Shown here one piece after another: positions 6,670-15,068 of a stretch of 63,142 bases of DNA (the stretch's first letter is position 1; each line of letters begins with the position of its first letter). A program made the translations under genes and the position numbers. The notes below the pieces were generated by a model. That model searched no databases, was not told where the DNA came from, and saw only the letters and a list, made by a program, of their open reading frames with translations. Origin of the DNA: Syntrophaceae bacterium (GTDB lineage: Bacteria > Desulfobacterota > Syntrophia > Syntrophales > PHBD01). The DNA lies in the NCBI GenBank assembly GCA_041310335.1, contig JBFYXW010000027.1, positions 1 through 63,142 of the forward strand, read 5' to 3'.

Positions 6670-6846
6670 TCATTCCTCGCCGGTTTCCTTCTTCTTCCTG
6701 TGGGCCCGGACAGCGATAAAGACGTACACACCCACGGCCGCCCCCAGCGAGATGATCAGGTTCACCAGCCCGCTTTCAATCCCGATGACCCGCTCGCAGA
6801 GGAGCCAGACCACCAGGTAGGTGACGGCTGTCAAGATCTCCTGCAT
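6670..6846 (-). CDS. Small (58 aa) two-helix membrane protein, function unknown
   Basis: MQEILTAVTYLVVWLLCERVIGIESGLVNLIISLGAAVGVYVFIAVRAHRKKKETGEE. It has two hydrophobic segments and a basic tail, with GGGAGG 12 nt upstream of ATG 6846. In-frame upstream starts at 6891 or further are possible. Confidence 0.5.
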   Translation of the reverse strand: MQEILTAVTYLVVWLLCERVIGIESGLVNLIISLGAAVGVYVFIAVRAHRKKKETGEE

Positions 6847-7137: not shown

Positions 7138-8670
7138 TCATCGCCGGACCCAGGCCAGCCTCGCCCGGCCGAGGGCCCGGCCGAAGCAGGCCACGGCGTT
7201 CGGCAGGGGGGAGACGGGGTCGCGCCGGAAGAGGTAGATCCGCTCCACGCCGAGACGCTCCGCCTCCTCCGCCACGAGCCGGTGCGCCTCCGCGGGGCCG
7301 TCGGCGGGAATGTACAGGTGGACGGGCAGGCCGAGCCGGCTCACCGCCAGGACTCGGCCCAGGGCCCGCCCGAGCCCTTCCGGGGCCCCGGCGCCCCGCC
7401 CCCCGTCGCCCGGGGAGGGAAAGGGCAGCATCAGCCGGAGGGCCCGAACGGGAAAGGAGCGCAGCCGCTCCCGGAAATCCGGGGCATCCGGGAGCCGACG
7501 GCCCGTCGTCCACAGGACGATCCCCATCCACGGGGGCACGCGGCGGAGGACCTCCGGTAGATCCGCCCGGAGGAGGGCGTCCCCCCCGAAGAACTCGATG
7601 CTCCGGTAATTCGGGTCCACCGCCAGGAGATCGCGGATCACCGCGGAAGCGGGCCTCCCGGCCGGCCTCCGGGCCGCGTCGCACCCGGAACACCCGTCCG
7701 GGCACGGGGCCCCCAGGTCCACCTGGTTCGTCACGGCGATGGGGTAGAAGGGGCGGCCGGCCCCCAGCGGCTTGATGTGCTCCTCGATGTATTCGGGGTT
7801 CCGCATGGGACAGGTGTCGCCGCCCAGGCGGACCAGCGGGTGGGCCTGCATGCGCTCGAAGACCTCCACGACGGACTCCCGCGTGGCGTCGCCGAAGACG
7901 AGCGGCAGGTACGGGCAGGGGGTGATCCAGCCGTTGCTCATGACGTGGCAGAAGATGTTCTTGGCGGTACACTTGTTCGTCTCCCCCGGCGGCGTCCCCG
8001 GCGTGTGCACGTAGACGAAGGAGTCGTACCGGGGGTCGACGGAGCGGAAGAGGTCCCGCTCATGGCGGGCGGCGAAGGGGAGCCCGTCTGGGCTGGCCGC
8101 ACGGCCGGAGAACCGGGGCAAGAGCAGACGCACCTTGTCCGCCCCCCTCCCCAGGACGAAGGCCAGGAACCGGTTCATGTCGCCGCCGGTGAAGAACTCG
8201 GTCGTCTCGGGCACCACGGAGACGTGGACGGCCAGGGAGGTCGCGGCGGCCCGCTCCAGTGCACCCACGGCCCGCTCGAAACTCCCCGCCCGTCCGCGCC
8301 GCCGGTCGTGCTCCCCGGCCCGGTAGTCGTCGATGCTCAGGTAGACCTGGTCGAGGCCTGCCGCTTCCAGCCGCCGGACGAAGGTCTCGTCCAGGAGCCA
8401 GCCATTGGTCTCCAGGGACATCACGAACCCGTGGGCTTTCCCGCGGCGGATGATCTCGAAGAGGTCTTTCCGCAGGGTCGGCTCGCCGCCGAAGAGGTCC
8501 ACCACCAGGCAGCCCGCCAGCCGGAGGTCCCGGAAGAGGTCGTCGATCCGCTCCAGCGGGAGCTCTTCCGGCATGACGGTCCGCAGGTCCGCCACCCCGC
8601 AGTGCTCGCAGTTGAGCATGCACCGGTTGGTGAGGGTGAGCTGGACGACCTTGACGAGGGGCAGGGCCAT
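7138..8670 (-). CDS. Radical SAM enzyme with twitch/SPASM-like Cys region and a C-terminal second CX3CX2C + GGD module
   Basis: ATG 8670 (MALPLVKVVQLTLTNRCMLNCEHCGV); the track ORF to 9384 is an extension overlapping the upstream gene. Motifs: CMLNCEHC, DLFGGEPTLR, then KCTAKNIFCHVMSNGWITPC...GGDTCP. A second set follows: CPDGCSGC then IEFFGGDALLR. Confidence 0.85.
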   Translation of the reverse strand: MALPLVKVVQLTLTNRCMLNCEHCGVADLRTVMPEELPLERIDDLFRDLRLAGCLVVDLFGGEPTLRKDLFEIIRRGKAHGFVMSLETNGWLLDETFVRRLEAAGLDQVYLSIDDYRAGEHDRRRGRAGSFERAVGALERAAATSLAVHVSVVPETTEFFTGGDMNRFLAFVLGRGADKVRLLLPRFSGRAASPDGLPFAARHERDLFRSVDPRYDSFVYVHTPGTPPGETNKCTAKNIFCHVMSNGWITPCPYLPLVFGDATRESVVEVFERMQAHPLVRLGGDTCPMRNPEYIEEHIKPLGAGRPFYPIAVTNQVDLGAPCPDGCSGCDAARRPAGRPASAVIRDLLAVDPNYRSIEFFGGDALLRADLPEVLRRVPPWMGIVLWTTGRRLPDAPDFRERLRSFPVRALRLMLPFPSPGDGGRGAGAPEGLGRALGRVLAVSRLGLPVHLYIPADGPAEAHRLVAEEAERLGVERIYLFRRDPVSPLPNAVACFGRALGRARLAWVRR

Positions 8671-8717
8671 GCTATGCGCCTCGATTGCGGGCCGCAGGGA
8701 CAGTGGGGAGAGCGGGA

Positions 8718-9830
8718 TCAGGCATGGGACACCACGAAGGAGGCGAGTTTGCCCTCCTCCACCAGCCGCTCCAGGCGTTCCGCCTTCGCCTGCCGGTCCT
8801 CCTCGCCAAAGCGGGGTGTCAGGACCGCCGCCCGGGTCACCCGGTTCTCCCCGTAGCCGATGAAGACGGAGTGATCGAAACGGCGGGCGAAGGAAACGCT
8901 CGCCGCGAACTCCTCCTCCGTCTCCGTGGGGAAGGCAAAGATGAAGTGGGTGTAGACAAAAACGCCGGGATCGAGGGCCCGGAGCCGCAAAACCGCCTCC
9001 GCCAGTTCCCCGGGGTCGTACCGCCGGTTCATCAGCCCCAGGATCCGCGGGGAAGCGGACTGGACGGGCAGGCAGACGTAGGGAATGCGCCGCGCCGCGA
9101 AAAACGGCTCCAGGCGCTCCGCATACCTGAGGAACAGGGCCGGGAAAACGGTGTAGAGCTTGACCCGGAGGTCCGGGGCGACGTCGCAGATCCGGCCGAC
9201 CAGCTCCGGCAGGTCCGTCCCCCGGTCCAGGCCCCAGGAGCCGCAGTCGTCCGCCAGGAGGGTCACGGTCCGGACTCCCTGACCATAGAGGGTGCGGGCC
9301 TGGTTCTCGATCTCCCCCGCGGGCCTGCTCCGGACGCTCCCCTTGGCCAGCCGGATGCTGCAGTAGCTGCAGTCGTTGACGCACCCCTGGGCAATGAGGA
9401 GGTAGTGGTCTTCGGGCCCCATGCGGGGCTGGTAGGGGCGGTGCCCGTCGAGGCGGGAGATGTGGACGGCCTCGAAGGGGACACGGGCCCCGACGAGGGC
9501 GTCCAGCTCAACGCTCGCCCGGTAGGGGATGAACCGGATCCACCCGGCATCGGAGCCGAGGGACACCCGCAGGTCTTCCGGAAAGGCCGCCAGGCAGCCG
9601 AAGACGACGAAGCTCGCCCGGGGATGGCGGCGCAGGCCCTCCGCAACGGCGGCCTCGCAGCGCCGGCGCATCTGGTCGGTGACGACGCAGGCGCCCACGA
9701 GGACCAGGTCCGCCTCCCCGGCGTCCCCGACGACCCGGTGGCCGTTCAGCTCGAAATACCGCCGGGCCCGGGAGAGGAACAGGGCGTTGTTCTCGCAGCC
9801 CCGGTGGAGGTTCTCGATGCGGACGTTCAT
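8718..9830 (-). CDS. MiaB/RimO-family (methylthiotransferase-like) radical SAM enzyme lacking a recognisable TRAM domain
   Basis: Likely start is ATG 9830 (MNVRIENLHRGCENN); the track start at 9875 is TTG. The three N-terminal Cys expected for the UPF0004 domain are present (GCENN, GACVVT, FGCLA). The radical-SAM motif is QGCVNDCSYC. The protein ends about 60 aa after the barrel. Confidence 0.85.
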   Translation of the reverse strand: MNVRIENLHRGCENNALFLSRARRYFELNGHRVVGDAGEADLVLVGACVVTDQMRRRCEAAVAEGLRRHPRASFVVFGCLAAFPEDLRVSLGSDAGWIRFIPYRASVELDALVGARVPFEAVHISRLDGHRPYQPRMGPEDHYLLIAQGCVNDCSYCSIRLAKGSVRSRPAGEIENQARTLYGQGVRTVTLLADDCGSWGLDRGTDLPELVGRICDVAPDLRVKLYTVFPALFLRYAERLEPFFAARRIPYVCLPVQSASPRILGLMNRRYDPGELAEAVLRLRALDPGVFVYTHFIFAFPTETEEEFAASVSFARRFDHSVFIGYGENRVTRAAVLTPRFGEEDRQAKAERLERLVEEGKLASFVVSHA

Positions 9831-9841
9831 GGATTCACCGA

Positions 9842-9888
9842 AAACAGGTCCGTTTTTTTGGGCAGTGCCGAACAAATCGGACCTGTTT
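9842..9888 (-). terminator. Intercistronic 11-bp stem-loop (possible attenuator/processing site) between the ACAD and the radical-SAM pair
   Basis: AAACAGGTCCG (9842-9852) and CGGACCTGTTT (9878-9888) are exact reverse complements, with a 25-nt loop. On the minus strand the 3' arm runs into UUUUCGG, immediately before the GGTGA SD of the next gene. Confidence 0.3.
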
Positions 9889-9894
9889 CTCCTT

Positions 9895-11037
9895 TCACAC
9901 CCCCGTCATCCGGGCGATGATGCCCTTCATGATCTCGTTGGTGCCGGCGAGGATGCGGGTGACCCGGAGGTCCCGCCAGGTCCGGGCCATCGGGCCGTCC
10001 TCGTCGAGGCCCAGCCGGCCGTGGAGCTGGAGGCAGCGGTCGGCGACCCGCCAGGCCGTCTCGGTGGTCCACCACTTGGCCATGGAGACCTCCGGGACGA
10101 CGTTTTTCCCCTCCATGTGGTCGGCGATGAGCTTGTCCACGAAGGTCCGGCCGATTCTTGCCTCCGTTGCCAGTTCGGCCAGTTCGAACCGGACGTGCTG
10201 GAACGACGACAGGGGTGAACCGGCAATGTCCGTCGCTTTCACGTGGGCCAGGGTCCGTTCCAGGACCCACTCCGCCGCGGAGACGGCGCCGATGGCCACG
10301 ACGAGGCGCTCCGGCTGGAGGTGCTTCATCAGGTTCTTGAATCCGGAACCCTTCCCACCGAGGCGGTGGGTCCGGGGCACCCGGCAGTCGCGGAAGAAGA
10401 TCTCCGTCGTGTCCTGGCTGTGCCAGCCAGCCTTCTTCAACCGGCGGCCCCGCTCGAAGCCGGCGGTCTTCCCTTCCACCAGGTAGATATCCACGGCCCG
10501 ATGGGGATCCGCCGTCGCCGGGTCCTTCGCGGCCACCACGAACAGGTCGCCGTTGGTGCCGTTGGAGATGAAGGTCTTCTGGCCGTTCAGGACGAAGGCA
10601 TCGCCATCCTCCACGGCGCTCGTCCGGATGGCCGCCACGTCGCTCCCGGCGTGGGGCTCCGTCATGGCGATGCCCGTGACGATCTCTCCGGCGATGCAGC
10701 CCGGTAGATAACGGTGCTTCAGCTCCTCCGAGCCGAAGGACGTGATGTAGGGGACGACGACGTTGCTGTGGAGACGGGGCGAGAGGCCATAGAAATTCGT
10801 TTTCGCCATCTCGTCGACGACGATGACGGAATAGAGAAAGTCGAGGCCCCGGCCGCCGTAGTCCCGGGGCACATCGGTGCAGAGAAACCCCGCCGCGCCC
10901 ATCGTCAGCCAGGCCGACCGGGGAACGATGCCGTCGGCCTCCCACCGGTCCACGAAGGGGATGACCTCTTTCGCCAGGAACCGCCGGAATTCCTCCCGGA
11001 AGGCCCTGTGATCGTTCGTCCAGGGAAGGATCTCCAT
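9895..11037 (-). CDS. Acyl-CoA dehydrogenase
   Basis: MEILPWTNDHRAFREEFRRF...TEPHAGSDVAA...ILAGTNEIMKGIIARMTGV. ATGA overlap with the upstream ligase stop (11035-11039). Paralog of the genes at 24922 and 60708. Confidence 0.9.
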   Translation of the reverse strand: MEILPWTNDHRAFREEFRRFLAKEVIPFVDRWEADGIVPRSAWLTMGAAGFLCTDVPRDYGGRGLDFLYSVIVVDEMAKTNFYGLSPRLHSNVVVPYITSFGSEELKHRYLPGCIAGEIVTGIAMTEPHAGSDVAAIRTSAVEDGDAFVLNGQKTFISNGTNGDLFVVAAKDPATADPHRAVDIYLVEGKTAGFERGRRLKKAGWHSQDTTEIFFRDCRVPRTHRLGGKGSGFKNLMKHLQPERLVVAIGAVSAAEWVLERTLAHVKATDIAGSPLSSFQHVRFELAELATEARIGRTFVDKLIADHMEGKNVVPEVSMAKWWTTETAWRVADRCLQLHGRLGLDEDGPMARTWRDLRVTRILAGTNEIMKGIIARMTGV

Positions 11038-12560
11038 CACGCCTCCCGGAGGCGCTTCTGGAGGATGCGCTTGAGGATCTTCCCGCCGGGGTTCCTGGGG
11101 AAGGAGTCGACGAAGAAGATCCGCCGGGGCATCTTGAAGGGAGCGATCTTCCCCTGGAGGCCCGCCAGGATCTCCTCCTCCGTCACGACCTCGCCCTCCT
11201 TGAGCAGGACAAAGGCCGCCACCACCTCGCCCCGCTTCGGGTCCGGCATGCCCACGGCCGCGGCCTCCTTCACCGCCCGGAGCGACTGGATCGCCCGCTC
11301 CACCTCGGCGGGGTAGATGTTCTCCCCCGAGGAGATGATCATCTCCACCTTGCGGCCGATGATGTGGAGGAACCCGTCTTCGTCGCGCCGTCCCATGTCG
11401 CCCGTCCGGAACCACCCGCCCCGCTTGGCTTCCGCGGTCTCCTTCGGCTTCCGCCAGTAGCCGGAAAACACGTTGGGGCCCTTCACCACGATCTCCCCGG
11501 GCTCCCCGGGGGCCACGTCCCGGTCCTGCTCGTCGACGATGCGGAGCCGCACGTGGAAGACCTCCTTGCCCACGGACCCGGCCTTGCGGACGGCGTCCTC
11601 CAGGTCCAGGGACGTGAGGCGCCCCGTCTCCGTGAGGGCGTAGCCCTGGACGAAGCCGACCCCCTTCTCGTCCTGGTACTTCCGGATGACCGGCAGCGGG
11701 ATCGGCGCCCCGCCGGAGATGAAGAAGTGGACGTGGGACAGGTCCGCCCCGGGCCACTCGGGCGTCTCCGTCATCAACTGGAACATGACGGGAACGGCGA
11801 ACAGGTAGTTGATCCGTTCCCGGACGACGGTCGAGAGGACCTCCGAGGCGCTGAAGAAGCCCGACAGGACCACGGACCCGCCGGCGTAGATCACCGGCGT
11901 GACCGACGCCGCCAGGGCCCCGATGTGGAAGAGGGGCGCCACCACGAGGGACCGGTAGGTCCGGTTGACGCCGTAGCCAATCAGCGAGTGGATGGCCCCG
12001 AAGAGGATGTTCCCGTGGGTCAGGACGGCCCCCTTGGGGTCCCCCGTGGTCCCGGAGGTGTACATGATGAACAGGGGGTCCTCGTCCGTCACCTCCTCCA
12101 CCGGCGAGGGCTCTCCCTCCGGCTCCGCCGCCGTCAGGTCCGCCAGGAGCGACTCGCCCGCCGGGGCCTCGCCGCCGTGGCGGATCCAGTGGCGGATCCC
12201 CAGGCCCAGGTCCTTCAGCGGCGCCGTCTTCTCGGCGAACTCGGCGGCGTAGACGAGTCCCCGGGGGGCCGAGTCGCGGAGGATGTACTCGATCTCCGGC
12301 GCCGCCAGGCGGTAGTTCACCGGCACCAGGATGGCCCCTGTCTTGGCGCAGGCGAAGAAGATCTCCAGGAATTCGCTCGTGTTTCCCATCACGAGGGCCA
12401 GGCGCTCCCCCTTCACGATGTCCAGGTGCTGCAGCGCCCGGGCCGTCCGGTTGACACGCCCGTTGAAGGCCCGGTTGCTGAAGACCCGATCCCCGTCCTT
12501 CAGGATTTCCCGGTCTGGGTGGGTGAAGGCCCTCTTTGCAATCCATTCTCCGACGTTCAT
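11037..12560 (-). CDS. AMP-dependent acyl-CoA synthetase/ligase
   Basis: ATG 12560 (MNVGEWIAKRAF) in ATGA overlap with the upstream stop. Motifs: MYTSGTTGDPKG (A3), GYALTETG, TGDMGRRDEDGFLHIIGR, C-terminal GKILKR. Confidence 0.9.
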   Translation of the reverse strand: MNVGEWIAKRAFTHPDREILKDGDRVFSNRAFNGRVNRTARALQHLDIVKGERLALVMGNTSEFLEIFFACAKTGAILVPVNYRLAAPEIEYILRDSAPRGLVYAAEFAEKTAPLKDLGLGIRHWIRHGGEAPAGESLLADLTAAEPEGEPSPVEEVTDEDPLFIMYTSGTTGDPKGAVLTHGNILFGAIHSLIGYGVNRTYRSLVVAPLFHIGALAASVTPVIYAGGSVVLSGFFSASEVLSTVVRERINYLFAVPVMFQLMTETPEWPGADLSHVHFFISGGAPIPLPVIRKYQDEKGVGFVQGYALTETGRLTSLDLEDAVRKAGSVGKEVFHVRLRIVDEQDRDVAPGEPGEIVVKGPNVFSGYWRKPKETAEAKRGGWFRTGDMGRRDEDGFLHIIGRKVEMIISSGENIYPAEVERAIQSLRAVKEAAAVGMPDPKRGEVVAAFVLLKEGEVVTEEEILAGLQGKIAPFKMPRRIFFVDSFPRNPGGKILKRILQKRLREA

Positions 12561-13828
12561 GATTCTGCCCCAATGTTTGAAAATACAAGGGACACATACG
12601 TCCCCCCGTGGGAGATGCCGCTGAGGAGCCCCTGCCGGAGGTTTGCCCGGGCGGCCTGCCCCGTCACAAAGGCCAGGGGCCGGACCGGCTCTTCCAGGCC
12701 CAGGGTGGGCGGGACGGCACCGTCCCGGAGGGCCAGGGCCAGGGCCGCCGCCCGGAGGCCCCCGGAGGTGAAGCTCTCCCCGAGGGCGCCCTTCAGGGCC
12801 GATACGAGGGGCCGTTCCGCTGAAAGACCGAAAACCATCTCCAGCCCCTCGGCTTCCAGGAGGTCCGGCTGGATCCCGCCGTTGGCCGCCGCAAAGACGA
12901 CGTCCACGTCTTCCGGGGCGGAACCGGCAGACCGGAGGGCCCGGCGGACCGCCAGGACGAAGCCCCGGGGATCCCCCGGCCAGCCGGTCATGGGGGCCGG
13001 CGAGGAGGCCAGGCCCTCGCCGGCGATTTCCGCGTATATCGTTGTCCCCCGCTCCCGGGCGGCCTCCAGGGGCTCCAGGCAAAGGATGCCGCAGCCCTCC
13101 CCGGCGACGGGGCCGTTCCGCAGGAGGTCGAAGGGGCGGGCCCCCTCGGGACCGCCTCCCTGGAGAGGCGACAGGGCCCGGAAGCGGACCAGGGACTCAA
13201 AGTAGAAAGGCGCCAGGACGTCGGCCCCGCCGGCGAGGATCGCCTCCGCGGCGCCCCGGCGGACCTCCTGGGCCCCGAAGGCCAGGGCCGACTCCGCCGA
13301 GATGCCGTAGTGGTTGACCGTCGTGTTGATCCCCCGGAACCCAAGCTCGATGGAGGCGTGCCCCGCCGGGGCGTTCATGACCACATTGGGCACCAGGATG
13401 GGATTCGCCGCCCCCGGACCCTCCGTGACGAGGACCCGGGCGAAGGAGACCGTCACGTCGGTCCCGCCCCAGGCCGTCCCCAGGATCATGCCCAGGCGGT
13501 CCCGGTTCGCCGGCGTGACGCAGAGCCCCGCATCGTCCAGGGCCATCCGGGCCGCCGCCGTCGCCACGGCGGAGAGGCGGTCCATCCGCCGCAGGTTCTT
13601 GATCGAGACGAAGTCCTTCGGCCGGAAATCCCGGATTTCCGCAGCCAGCCGACAGGGCAGCGCCTCCGGGGAGAACGCCCCGAGCGGGGCGATTCCCGAT
13701 TCCCCGGCGAAGAGGGCCCTGCCGAAGGCCTCGCGGCCGCAGCCGAGGGGGGAAACGACGCCGATGCCCGTCACGGCGACTCTCCGGTCCATCCCGTTCG
13801 GCCTGTCCGGCCGGTCCGACCTATCCAT
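12557..13828 (-). CDS. Ketosynthase-fold protein lacking the Cys-His-His triad (chain-length-factor-like KS partner)
   Basis: RRVAVTGIGVVSPLG KS N-terminus. By hand alignment to the neighbouring KS, TACSSG aligns to HYGISA (Gly at the Cys position). CDSHHMT aligns to SSPAPMT, and NAHGTAT aligns to AAANGGI. The start may be 13828 or the internal ATG at 13792. Confidence 0.8.
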   Translation of the reverse strand: MDRSDRPDRPNGMDRRVAVTGIGVVSPLGCGREAFGRALFAGESGIAPLGAFSPEALPCRLAAEIRDFRPKDFVSIKNLRRMDRLSAVATAAARMALDDAGLCVTPANRDRLGMILGTAWGGTDVTVSFARVLVTEGPGAANPILVPNVVMNAPAGHASIELGFRGINTTVNHYGISAESALAFGAQEVRRGAAEAILAGGADVLAPFYFESLVRFRALSPLQGGGPEGARPFDLLRNGPVAGEGCGILCLEPLEAARERGTTIYAEIAGEGLASSPAPMTGWPGDPRGFVLAVRRALRSAGSAPEDVDVVFAAANGGIQPDLLEAEGLEMVFGLSAERPLVSALKGALGESFTSGGLRAAALALALRDGAVPPTLGLEEPVRPLAFVTGQAARANLRQGLLSGISHGGTYVSLVFSNIGAES

Positions 13829-15068
13829 TCCGCCCGCGCCCCCCTTCTGCGAACCTCCCGAAGACGAGAGACGTGTTGTTCCCCCCGAAGGCGAAGGAGT
13901 TGGACAGGACCACCGCGAGGTCCGCCTCCCGGGCCCCCTCCGTGACGTAGTCGAGGTCGCACTCCGGGTCCGGCACGGTGCAGTGAATCGTCGGGGGAAC
14001 GAACCGGTGGTGGATCGCCAGGACCGACGCGACCGCTTCGAGGGCCCCCGAGGCGCCCAGGGTGTGGCCCGTCATGGACTTCGTGGAACTGACGGGGATC
14101 CGCCCGGCCCGGTCGCCGAAAACGTTCCGGATCGCCCGGCTCTCCATGACGTCGTTGGGCGGCGTGGCGGTGCCGTGGGCATTGATGTAGTCGACCTGCT
14201 CCGGGGAAACCCCCGCGTCGCGGAGGGCCTCCCGCATCGAGCGGGCCGCTCCGGAGGCCTCCGGGTCGGGGGCCGTCATGTGGTGGGAGTCACAGGTGAC
14301 GCCGTAGCCCAGGACCTCGGCGTAGATGTGCGCCCCCCGTGCCCGGGCGTGGGCAAGGGATTCGAGGATCAGCATGCCCGCCGCCTCGCCGAGGGAGAGG
14401 CCCGCCCTGTTTCCCGCAAAGGGCTTGCAGGGCGACGGGTCCACCGCCTGGAGGGCGTTGAAGGCGGCGTAGGTGATGCGGCAGAGGGGCTCCGTCCCGC
14501 CGGCGATGACGATGGGGGCGGCCCCGCTCCGGATGAGGTCCCGGGCGTAGCCGACGGCGGTGGCTCCGGAGGAGCAGGCCGTCATGAAGGTCGTCTTGGG
14601 GCCCCAGAGCCCCAGCAGGGAGGCGATCCGGTCCGCCGAGGAGGCGCAGTAGACCGCCGACAGGGCGGAGAAGCGGGCCAGCCGGCCCCGGGTGCGCAAG
14701 TAGTCTCCGAAGAACCGCTCCCCCTCCAAGAGCCCCCCCCCGCCGCCGCCGATGACGACGCCCGTCTGCTCCGCCAGTGACGGAGGCAGCGGGTCCAGCC
14801 CCGCGTCCCGCAGCGCTTCCAGGGCCGCGGCAAATCCCAGGAGGTCCGCCCGGGACATGCGCTTCAGGGGGTATGAGGGGGGGATGTGGTCCCGGGGGTC
14901 GAAATCCTTCACCTCCGCGGCGACGTGCGTCCGGAACTCCGAGGCGTCGAAGACGGAGAAGGGCCCGATCCCGCAGCGTCCCTCCCGCAGGGCCAGCGCG
15001 AAGGTCCGGGCGCTCTTCGCAATCCCGTTGAGGGTTCCCAGTCCGGTGACGACGACCCGTTCCATCAT
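13821..15068 (-). CDS. Beta-ketoacyl synthase (FabF/KAS II-like) with intact catalytic triad
   Basis: MMERVVVTGLGT..., FMTACSSGATAVG (Cys), CDSHHMTAP (His), YINAHGTATPPND (His), SFAFGGNNTSLVF. The start abuts the murI stop (15068/15069). Confidence 0.9.
   Translation of the reverse strand: MMERVVVTGLGTLNGIAKSARTFALALREGRCGIGPFSVFDASEFRTHVAAEVKDFDPRDHIPPSYPLKRMSRADLLGFAAALEALRDAGLDPLPPSLAEQTGVVIGGGGGGLLEGERFFGDYLRTRGRLARFSALSAVYCASSADRIASLLGLWGPKTTFMTACSSGATAVGYARDLIRSGAAPIVIAGGTEPLCRITYAAFNALQAVDPSPCKPFAGNRAGLSLGEAAGMLILESLAHARARGAHIYAEVLGYGVTCDSHHMTAPDPEASGAARSMREALRDAGVSPEQVDYINAHGTATPPNDVMESRAIRNVFGDRAGRIPVSSTKSMTGHTLGASGALEAVASVLAIHHRFVPPTIHCTVPDPECDLDYVTEGAREADLAVVLSNSFAFGGNNTSLVFGRFAEGGRGRNG

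Follow-up and report, generated by a model that had tools for sequence, protein, structure and literature searches.

A Radical SAM Protein of a Syntrophaceae Bacterium with a Second Radical SAM-Type Core behind a Predicted Twitch Domain

Locus and Domain Architecture

The stretch of DNA analysed here (the window) comprises 63,142 nucleotides of contig JBFYXW010000027.1 of a Syntrophaceae bacterium (assembly GCA_041310335.1). The gene under study, hereafter the target gene, lies on the reverse strand and encodes a protein with a canonical radical S-adenosylmethionine (SAM) core (domain 1), a putative twitch domain (domain 2), and a second radical SAM-type core (domain 3). Directly upstream is a gene for a MiaB/RimO-like radical SAM protein (partner A), and further upstream, at 9895-15068 (-), a string of genes encodes a ketosynthase (KS), a Cys-poor KS, an acyl-AMP ligase, and an acyl-CoA dehydrogenase (ACAD). 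The coordinates of the features are collected in Table 1. Third-position GC content is 0.91-0.96 across all 300-nt slices of the target gene and 0.91-0.93 in its C-terminal part; since it is high throughout, the entire frame, including the C-terminal third, is coding. The N-terminus (MALPL[VI]KVVQLT) agrees with that of the orthologues.

Table 1. Features of the target gene and its surroundings (positions in the window; residues are numbered in the target protein).
Feature	Position	Strand	Basis
Target gene: radical SAM core + predicted twitch domain + second radical SAM core	7138..8670	-	510 aa plus stop
Domain 1, residues 1-225: canonical radical SAM core, MoaA/NifB/PqqE/SkfB type	7996..8670	-	Pfam, PDB profile, Foldseek
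First CX3CX2C, CMLNCEHC (C17, C21, C24), SAM-cluster ligands	8599..8622	-	Invariant in 58 sequences
GGE motif, residues 61-63	8482..8490	-	G61, G62, E63, P64, T65 invariant
Domain 2, residues 226-300: predicted twitch (half-SPASM), C234/C241/C252/C287	7771..7995	-	Pfam, profile, conservation, dN/dS
Domain 3, residues 315-510: second radical SAM-type (beta/alpha)6 core + terminal beta strand	7141..7728	-	hhalign, Pfam, PDB profile, AlphaFold2/Foldseek
Second CX3CX2C, CPDGCSGC (C323, C327, C330), predicted ligands of third [4Fe-4S] cluster	7681..7704	-	Invariant in 58 sequences
GGD motif, residues 362-364, counterpart of GGE	7579..7587	-	G362, G363 invariant
C495-F496-G497 tripeptide, loop between beta6 and last strand of domain 3	7180..7188	-	Invariant in 58 sequences
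Terminator-like hairpin with T-rich tail, starting at the target stop codon	7121..7140	-	Consensus scan only
Partner gene A: TRAM-less MiaB/RimO-like radical SAM protein (UPF0004 + radical SAM), 47 nt upstream of the target gene	8718..9830	-	Pfam, NCBIfam

Conservation was analysed in an alignment of 58 full-length homologues with identity to the target protein down to 34%. Ten of the 12 Cys residues of the protein are invariant, and the other two, C54 and C241, are conserved in at least 90% of the sequences. The invariant positions include C17, C21, C24, G61, G62, E63, P64, and T65 in domain 1, C234, C252, and C287 in domain 2, and C323, C327, C330, Y355, G362, G363, C495, F496, and G497 in domain 3. 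Because the Cys and Gly motifs are invariant or kept in at least 90% of the homologues, their pattern is beyond chance. The paired motifs were found as listed in a preliminary description of this gene: CMLNCEHC (residues 17-24) is followed by DLFGGEPTLR (58-67), with GGE 37 residues after C24, where about 35 had been given, and CPDGCSGC (323-330) is followed by IEFFGGDALLR (358-368), with GG 32 residues after C330. The C-terminal extension, described as having roughly 190 aa, measures about 196 aa. In the AlphaFold2 model of the full-length protein, the predicted local distance difference test score (pLDDT) is 87 and the predicted template modelling score (pTM) is 0.89.

Domain 1 scores 91.9 bits against Pfam Radical_SAM (PF04055, gathering cut-off 29.5) over residues 12-146, which places it in this family. 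Its PDB profile matches are BlsE, glycerol dibiphytanyl glycerol tetraether-macrocyclic archaeol synthase (GDGT-MAS), SkfB, and MoaA, and its Foldseek matches are SkfB, BlsE, SuiB, and MoaA. The standard radical SAM core previously described at the N-terminus is borne out by the Pfam score and by the invariance of C17/C21/C24 and GGE. Within the first motif, residue 19 is Cys in 52 of the 58 homologues (CQCNCxHC) and Leu in the target protein and its closest relatives.

The Cys-rich stretch that follows is present as C234-x6-C241-x5-G247-x4-C252 ... C287; the preliminary description had recognised it but gave the first spacing as x7. C241 occurs in 54 of the 58 homologues and the three other Cys residues in all of them. 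The SPASM pattern consists of seven Cys residues, CX9-15GX4C ... CX2CX5CX3C ... C, and binds two auxiliary clusters. Pfam SPASM matches the target protein weakly (residues 234-276, 16.7 bits, cut-off 21.5) and some homologues more strongly (1e-6), while the SkfB profile match extends through residue 270. We read domain 2 as a twitch domain with one predicted auxiliary [4Fe-4S] cluster because it has four Cys residues, lacks the CX2CX5CX3C half, and matches the twitch region of SkfB. Assignment to SPASM proper (PF13186 / TIGR04085-type) was rejected, given the Cys pattern and the Pfam score below the cut-off.

The Second Radical SAM Core

Domain 3 is a complete minimal radical SAM core, of the size of NrdG or the pyruvate formate-lyase activating enzyme (PFL-AE), and is homologous to the N-terminal core of the same protein. 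This identification rests on four independent lines of evidence. When the profile of residues 300-510 was compared with residues 1-230 of its own family using hhalign, the probability was 98.4% (E 8e-15), and the alignment was in register, with CX3CX2C on CX3CX2C, GGD on GGE, and the beta3 and beta5 strands on their counterparts. Pfam Radical_SAM was matched by 13 of 18 isolated domain 3 sequences of orthologues, scanned singly (best 1.7e-14), and in four more distant full-length members (P0098, P0096, P0079, and P0085) two Radical_SAM stretches per protein were recognised. The PDB profile matches of domain 3 are radical SAM cores only (YydG/EpeE, BlsE, SkfB, GDGT-MAS, and MoaA), aligned at the cluster motifs. 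Finally, the AlphaFold2 model of isolated domain 3 (pLDDT 83) contains six beta-alpha units at residues 316-483 plus a last strand, which corresponds to the partial (beta/alpha)6 TIM-barrel fold of the radical SAM superfamily, with the cluster loop behind beta1. The 13 best Foldseek matches of this model in the PDB are the cores of NifB, SkfB, BlsE, viperin, lysine 2,3-aminomutase (LAM), LipA, and SuiB, with query-normalised TM-scores (TMq) of 0.5-0.58; a few generic TIM-barrel enzymes appear lower down the list.

The preliminary description had suggested either a duplicated second radical SAM half-barrel or an unusual auxiliary-cluster domain, to be checked by structure prediction and profile parsing of the C-terminal region. 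The second barrel and its homology to the N-terminal core were upheld; the barrel, however, is a complete (beta/alpha)6 core and not a half. Structure prediction yielded a confident radical SAM-type barrel whose best matches are radical SAM cores, and profile parsing recognised Radical_SAM in the orthologous C-terminal domains mentioned above but not in that of the target protein itself.

Conservation and Selection in Domain 3

The residue preceding the last Cys of the second motif varies among the 58 sequences: it is G in 30, D in 20, H in 4, and E in 2. Position 364 is occupied by D in 49 sequences, E in 8, and N in 1, thus 57 of 58 retain GG with an acidic residue behind it. The Gly before the last Cys had been put forward as an argument for degeneracy of the second motif. 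This argument fails: NrdG of E. coli K-12, an established SAM-cleaving activase, carries CVHECPGC, SGGDP, and VWTG and aligns in register with domain 3 (87%), and since it has both features, neither this Gly nor GGD is a sign of decay. Lack of conservation of the second motif in homologues had been named as a reason to abandon the idea of a second core; C323/C327/C330 turned out to be as conserved as the first motif.

Among close relatives, the ratio of nonsynonymous to synonymous substitution rates (dN/dS) is 0.09-0.13 for domain 1, 0.03-0.04 for domain 2, the lowest in the protein, and 0.28-0.32 for domain 3. Domain 3 is thus under purifying selection, about three times weaker than that on domain 1. 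The term "partly degenerate", applied to it earlier, holds for this weaker constraint (about 0.3 against about 0.1) and for the loss of the S-x-D motif described below, but not for the Cys triad and GG, which are invariant in 58 of 58 sequences.

Other features resemble those of domain 1. The beta5 motif PVHLYVP of domain 3 is similar to HVSxVP of domain 1, and the most distant orthologues retain GGE and S-N-G in domain 3. SAM binding by domain 3 is plausible because GG and the acidic residue are kept, beta5 is alike, NrdG has the same features, and the orthologues have GGE, S-N-G, and the HxsC match given in the next section. The model places C495 on the barrel's cluster face, within the loop that follows beta6; this residue could be a fourth cluster ligand or an active-site Cys.

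Distribution of the Family and Origin of Domain 3

A homologue search covering 5.8 billion proteins revealed about 100 full-length homologues of about 510 aa each, none of which has a functional name in any source. They are encoded in metagenome-assembled genomes (MAGs) of Syntrophaceae/Syntrophales, Geobacteraceae, Desulfatiglandaceae, Methylomirabilis, Ignavibacteria, Myxococcota, Binatia, Omnitrophota, and a few archaea. Clustering of the family at 50% identity gives 19 clusters, and at 90% identity about 100. In an exhaustive profile search of 1.84 billion representatives, in which the family proper was delimited by E <= 1e-30, 19 clusters were found at this threshold and 250 at E <= 1e-10. 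Many of the latter have two cores in about 600 aa, or three or four cores in 900-1400 aa. The proteins P0146, P0155, P0160, and P0163, of about 600 aa, consist of an HxsC-like core and a SPASM-type core, a domain order opposite to that of the target protein, and P0146 exceeds the HxsC cut-off. P0138 and P0121 (1260-1406 aa) are among the metagenomic proteins with two to four radical SAM cores per chain.

No NCBIfam or Pfam model scores above its cut-off for the whole target protein or for domain 3, and we know of no characterised SPASM/twitch enzyme in which a core and a twitch domain are followed by a second core. To this extent, the atypical architecture claimed in the preliminary description stands; tandem and triple radical SAM-core proteins are, however, common in metagenomes, so the architecture is uncharacterised rather than unique. 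A literature search for two, tandem, or second radical SAM domains or motifs brought up only FbiC and Tes/MJ0619. As judged from these comparisons, the target protein belongs to no curated family, and its radical SAM - twitch - radical SAM arrangement appears uncharacterised but not unprecedented.

As for the origin of domain 3, hhalign gave E-values of 7.5e-15 with its own N-terminal core, about 1e-14 with the HxsC-like N-domains of tandem proteins, and 7e-12 with a neighbouring HxsC-like family. All such comparisons fall between 1e-11 and 1e-15 and do not discriminate between the candidates. In the three most distant orthologues, the best NCBIfam match of domain 3 is HxsC (1.5e-17), whereas domain 3 of the target protein has no NCBIfam match. 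Membership of domain 3 in the HxsC family (TIGR03977) was therefore rejected; the cut-off of 267.9 bits is out of reach because the domain 3 stretch has only about 160 residues. Since domain 3 is equally close to HxsC-like cores and to its own N-terminal core, fusion with an HxsC-like core appears as likely as internal duplication.

MiaB/RimO-Like Partner Genes

A MiaB-like gene adjoins the target gene in the window and in 20 of 22 related loci with a full-length or near-full-length copy. Of the two loci without an adjoining partner, L023 is ended by a contig edge, and L026 has no partner at E <= 1e-20. The cassettes contain one or two MiaB-like genes (A and B) next to the target gene (C) and are arranged as A-B-C, B-C-A, C-A, or B-C. 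Partner A of the window is 79% identical to the A protein of the A-B-C cassette of relatives. It scores 172.7 bits against the NCBIfam MiaB/RimO model (TIGR00089, cut-off 251), with a match that does not go beyond position 361 of the 429 in the profile. A MiaB/RimO methylthiotransferase proper was therefore rejected as its identity: the score is below the cut-off and the C-terminal TRAM part is missing.

The genes also occur fused. MiaB-like + target fusions of 881-897 aa were found, as well as a 1260-aa chain with four CX3CX2C motifs and a possible target + MiaB-like fusion of 942 aa. Because such fusion proteins exist, the target and MiaB/RimO-like proteins would be expected to act in one complex; the Rosetta-stone evidence for this is strong.

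The second partner, B, has been lost from the genome of the window: the 47-nt gap at 8671-8717 contains no remnant of it, and no B orthologue is present elsewhere in this 99.5%-complete genome. Paralogue B was found in five of six genomes of the same genus and in genome G024 (A-B-C); in locus L005 it is located at 8833-9999. The Geobacter MAG locus L011 likewise has C-A only. Small open reading frames upstream and downstream of the cassette were inspected for a precursor peptide, and none is conserved across the loci. No HxsA- or HxsD-like genes were recognised by Pfam in the cassette loci, where no specific search for a His-Xaa-Ser repeat protein or HxsD was made.

An Unlinked Second Locus

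In four loci of Geobacteraceae and other deltaproteobacterial MAGs (L011, L012, L015, and L016), the cassette is directly flanked by a further set of genes. They encode a DUF3467-domain protein of about 390 aa, an HxsC-like radical SAM protein of about 300 aa, a protein of about 290 aa of no known family, a B12-radical SAM protein, a COMT-type O-methyltransferase, sometimes fused to DUF3467, a SecA2-like ATPase, and an M50 intramembrane protease fused to an HlyD-like part, for which the best model is the daptide protease (1e-45). In the genome of the window, a separate contig (C100; locus L095, 1-8263) carries genes for an RTX-repeat protein, a 399-aa DUF3467 protein (DUF3467-399), an HxsC-like radical SAM protein, the ~290-aa protein, an O-methyltransferase, and a 114-aa DUF3467 protein (DUF3467-114). 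The same gene order is repeated on a separate contig of G024 (C25; L098), where it is followed by the M50 protease gene.

Co-occurrence was analysed in a sample of 41 relatives. The target gene is present in eight of them, namely in all seven genomes of its own genus and in G024; the DUF3467-399 gene is intact in exactly these eight genomes and absent from 31 others. This fits one system split over two loci. In two genomes without the target gene, a DUF3467-399 homologue with in-frame stops was found (G016:C17:19206-20402 and G037:C227:778-1965), as if the gene had decayed once its partners were lost.

DUF3467 occurs in three forms: as a stand-alone protein of 114 aa, as the N-terminus of the ~390-aa protein, and as the C-terminus of the O-methyltransferase (L015:2593-3774, L015:10911-12263, L011:6702-7874, and L095:6283-6627). 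In this it resembles a docking or recognition module shared between proteins, by analogy with the recognition element (RRE) of enzymes acting on ribosomally synthesised peptides modified after translation (RiPPs). A literature search for DUF3467 found nothing relevant, and neither the ~290-aa protein nor the DUF3467-393 protein has sequence relatives in the PDB.

Proposed Function and Alternative Explanations

There is good support for the three-domain architecture, for a conserved second barrel, and for a genetic link of the target gene with the TRAM-less MiaB/RimO-like enzymes and with the second locus. In the mechanism we propose, the target protein would be a three-domain radical SAM enzyme with three [4Fe-4S] clusters predicted from the conserved Cys ligands. 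Domain 1 would be the canonical SAM-cleaving core, and domain 2, situated between both cores in the sequence, would hold one auxiliary cluster. Domain 3 would be a diverged complete core, with a site-differentiated three-Cys [4Fe-4S] cluster bound via C323/C327/C330 and a GG[D/E] turn that retains its role in binding the amino group of SAM. The enzyme would run two radical steps on one substrate, in complex with one or two TRAM-less MiaB/RimO-like radical SAM proteins, only A in the case of the window. The pair would be part of a two-locus multi-radical SAM tailoring system, whose context genes point to protein or peptide maturation rather than to lipid; a possible substrate, in analogy to HxsA, which HxsB and HxsC mature, is the conserved RTX-repeat protein. 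We lean slightly towards the view that domain 3 still binds SAM and serves as a second radical-generating or SAM-dependent site. Judging from the gene context, the substrate is probably a protein or peptide. A more specific version of this proposal is speculative and fairly unlikely as a whole: both barrels would cleave SAM and, together with the TRAM-less partners, would introduce sulfur-containing or cross-linking modifications into a dedicated RTX-repeat protein, for example methylthiolation at Asp-rich repeats, as RimO does on Asp88 of S12, within a new two-locus system with up to six radical SAM cores and DUF3467 as the recognition or docking module.

Several observations weigh against an active second core and a peptide substrate. 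Domain 3 of the target protein itself stays below the Pfam Radical_SAM threshold (13.1 bits, E 0.11), and by dN/dS it evolves about three times faster than domain 1. The S-x-D of beta4 in domain 1 (S112, D114), a position that we take to be the ribose-binding motif of radical SAM structures, is replaced by K-V-x-L-P in domain 3, and E-T-N-G of beta3 by W-[ST]-T-x. If C495 is the fourth ligand of the domain 3 cluster, canonical SAM binding would be blocked. Homologues of about 320 aa without domain 3 keep the MiaB-like partner (L024, L025, and L027), so domain 3 is dispensable in some lineages. As to the substrate, no precursor was found in the cassette loci, few independent lineages, namely one genus and G024, underlie the co-occurrence, and in the genus of the window the pair directly follows the KS-KS-ligase-ACAD string, which makes a lipid-type substrate possible.

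A serious, if less probable, rival, already raised in the preliminary description, is that domain 3 is a former radical SAM core that now serves as an auxiliary-cluster domain, with a cluster fully ligated by C323/C327/C330 and C495 and without SAM binding; it would transfer electrons, anchor the substrate, or keep sulfur or a cluster in reserve for the MiaB/RimO-like partner. The invariant C495 on the cluster face, the lost S-x-D, the higher dN/dS, and the partner genes beside homologues without domain 3 are in line with such a role, for which GDGT-MAS/Tes offers a precedent: there, a second CX3CX2C (C73/C77/C80 plus His) holds a fully ligated auxiliary cluster (PMC9433317). The second motif of Tes, however, is located in a small non-barrel domain and not in a radical SAM fold, a mere cluster holder would need neither a whole barrel nor an invariant GG[D/E] turn, and NrdG demonstrates that unusual motif residues are compatible with SAM cleavage. 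Somewhat doubtful is a Rosetta-stone fusion of two independent radical SAM enzymes acting on successive intermediates of one pathway, like FbiC (CofG + CofH), with domain 3 derived from an HxsC-like stand-alone enzyme. HxsC is the best match for domain 3 of the distant orthologues, the HxsC-like N-domains of the ~600-aa tandem proteins are as close to domain 3 as its own N-terminal core, fusions of HxsC-like and SPASM-type cores and proteins with three or four cores are common, and the two radical SAM domains of FbiC generate two 5'-deoxyadenosyl (5'-dA) radicals (PMC11917521). Against this, domain 3 has 196 aa, whereas HxsC has about 290-350 aa, and it carries no substrate-binding extension of its own; the full-length model is one compact globule (pTM 0.89), and stand-alone domain 3 proteins look like fragments.

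It is also quite unlikely that the radical SAM pair belongs to the KS-KS-ligase-ACAD string and that its substrate is a fatty-acyl or polyketide-like chain, on an unactivated carbon of which it would, for example, form a C-C or C-S bond in the manner of Tes-type lipid enzymes. The genes share a strand and are tightly spaced (ACAD stop at 9895, partner A start at 9830), the order is the same in the same-genus relatives L007 and L009, and GDGT-MAS is among the nearest structural relatives of the N-terminal core. However, the string adjoins the radical SAM genes only in one genus; in L005, a two-gene insert (AAA_15 + DUF4276) separates ACAD from them (string L005:404-7562), and G024, L001, L002, and L006 have no KS, ligase, or ACAD beside the cassette. 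We regard the string as a neighbour, with a partnership improbable, because it is restricted to one genus, split in L005, and not beside the cassette in these four. Cassettes of other taxa are located among DUF3467, O-methyltransferase, M50 protease, and SecA2-like genes, and the target protein reaches 71.8 bits on the Tes family model, whose cut-off is 450. It seems highly improbable that domain 3 is a relic in decay that has no function of its own. Its dN/dS is the highest of the three domains and the copy of the target protein falls under the Pfam threshold, but at about 0.3 this ratio lies far under 1, ten residues, among them all four Cys, are invariant across phyla down to 34% identity, and the fold is confidently predicted.

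On the other side of the target gene, the terminator-like hairpin at its stop codon would make it the last gene of its transcription unit. Further downstream, at 6670-6846 (-), a 58-aa predicted membrane protein (MQEILTAVTYLVVWLLCERVIGIES...) is encoded. The 78%-related locus L005 carries a nearly identical copy of it; no family was matched by this protein, and more distant loci showed no counterpart.

Comparison with Known Systems

The usual description of a radical SAM enzyme is a single SAM-cleaving core with accessory domains, and TRAM is an RNA-binding domain. The family reported here combines a core, a predicted twitch cluster, and a second core in several bacterial phyla and some archaeal MAGs and is tied to RimO/MiaB-like enzymes that lack TRAM. 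If the second core is active, the protein would be a compact model for two radical-generating sites cooperating on one substrate; should the second core be an auxiliary-cluster domain, it would be an example of a radical SAM barrel converted into one. The linked genes outline an uncharacterised multi-radical SAM maturation system in uncultured anaerobes, and metagenomes contain many proteins with two to four radical SAM cores, which are unstudied.

The best sequence and fold matches of the target protein are in the MoaA/NifB/PqqE/SkfB group, with which it shares a partial TIM barrel followed by a Cys-rich beta-hairpin domain. CX3CX2C, GGEPTLR, E-T-N-G, and S-x-D are common to domains 1-2 and SkfB (6EFN), BlsE (7VOB), SuiB (5V1Q), and MoaA (1TV7). 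Unlike the target protein, members of this group have no second radical SAM barrel behind the auxiliary-cluster domain. The target protein in turn differs from the twitch/SPASM group in having four Cys residues in domain 2, no CX2CX5CX3C half, and no RRE/PqqD-like domain, and its NCBIfam scores are all far under the cut-offs. The tetrapyrrole radical SAM-SPASM enzymes AhbD and NirJ were rejected as possible families (101.7 bits against 500 and 91.7 bits against 515, respectively).

Tes/GDGT-MAS (MJ0619, 7TOL) has about 500 aa, two CX3CX2C motifs, and three [4Fe-4S] clusters (PMC9433317, PMC8941075); the target protein is similar in size and motifs, and three clusters are predicted in it. The radical SAM core of Tes is among the closest solved relatives of the target core. 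The extra CX3CX2C of Tes, however, belongs to a small N-terminal auxiliary domain and not to a radical SAM barrel, and Tes, unlike the target protein, contains in addition a rubredoxin domain and, at the C-terminus, a cluster that has a Met ligand. Membership in the Tes/GDGT-MAS family (NF045702) was rejected: the match covers the radical SAM core only, and the target protein has no N-terminal extension, its CX3CX2C starting at residue 17.

To our knowledge, FbiC is the only well-studied radical SAM case with two cores. Like the target protein, it has two radical SAM domains on one chain; in contrast to it, FbiC joins two full-size enzymes that are also found separately and has no twitch domain between the cores. 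No search that we made indicated a sequence relationship between the two. In FbiC, one polypeptide contains two radical SAM domains, each with its own cluster, and two 5'-dA radicals are generated per overall reaction (PMC11917521).

NrdG of E. coli (b4237) resembles domain 3 as a minimal radical SAM core of 154 aa with CxxxCPGC, GGD, and V-W-T-G, although the alignment covers the first half only. NrdG is a stand-alone activase of a glycyl-radical enzyme, whereas no glycyl-radical enzyme partner is evident for the target protein.

In the His-Xaa-Ser (HXS) system, HxsB, which from the NCBIfam family description we take to be SPASM-type, and HxsC are two radical SAM proteins always encoded side by side and acting on one substrate, as would be the case for the target protein and its partner. 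The two proteins mature the protein effector HxsA (PMC13128918). The target protein differs from this system in that its partners are MiaB/RimO-like and domain 3 is about 100-150 aa shorter than HxsC. At the same time, an HxsC-like radical SAM gene is part of the system of the target gene, and fusions of these core types exist in the order opposite to that of the target protein.

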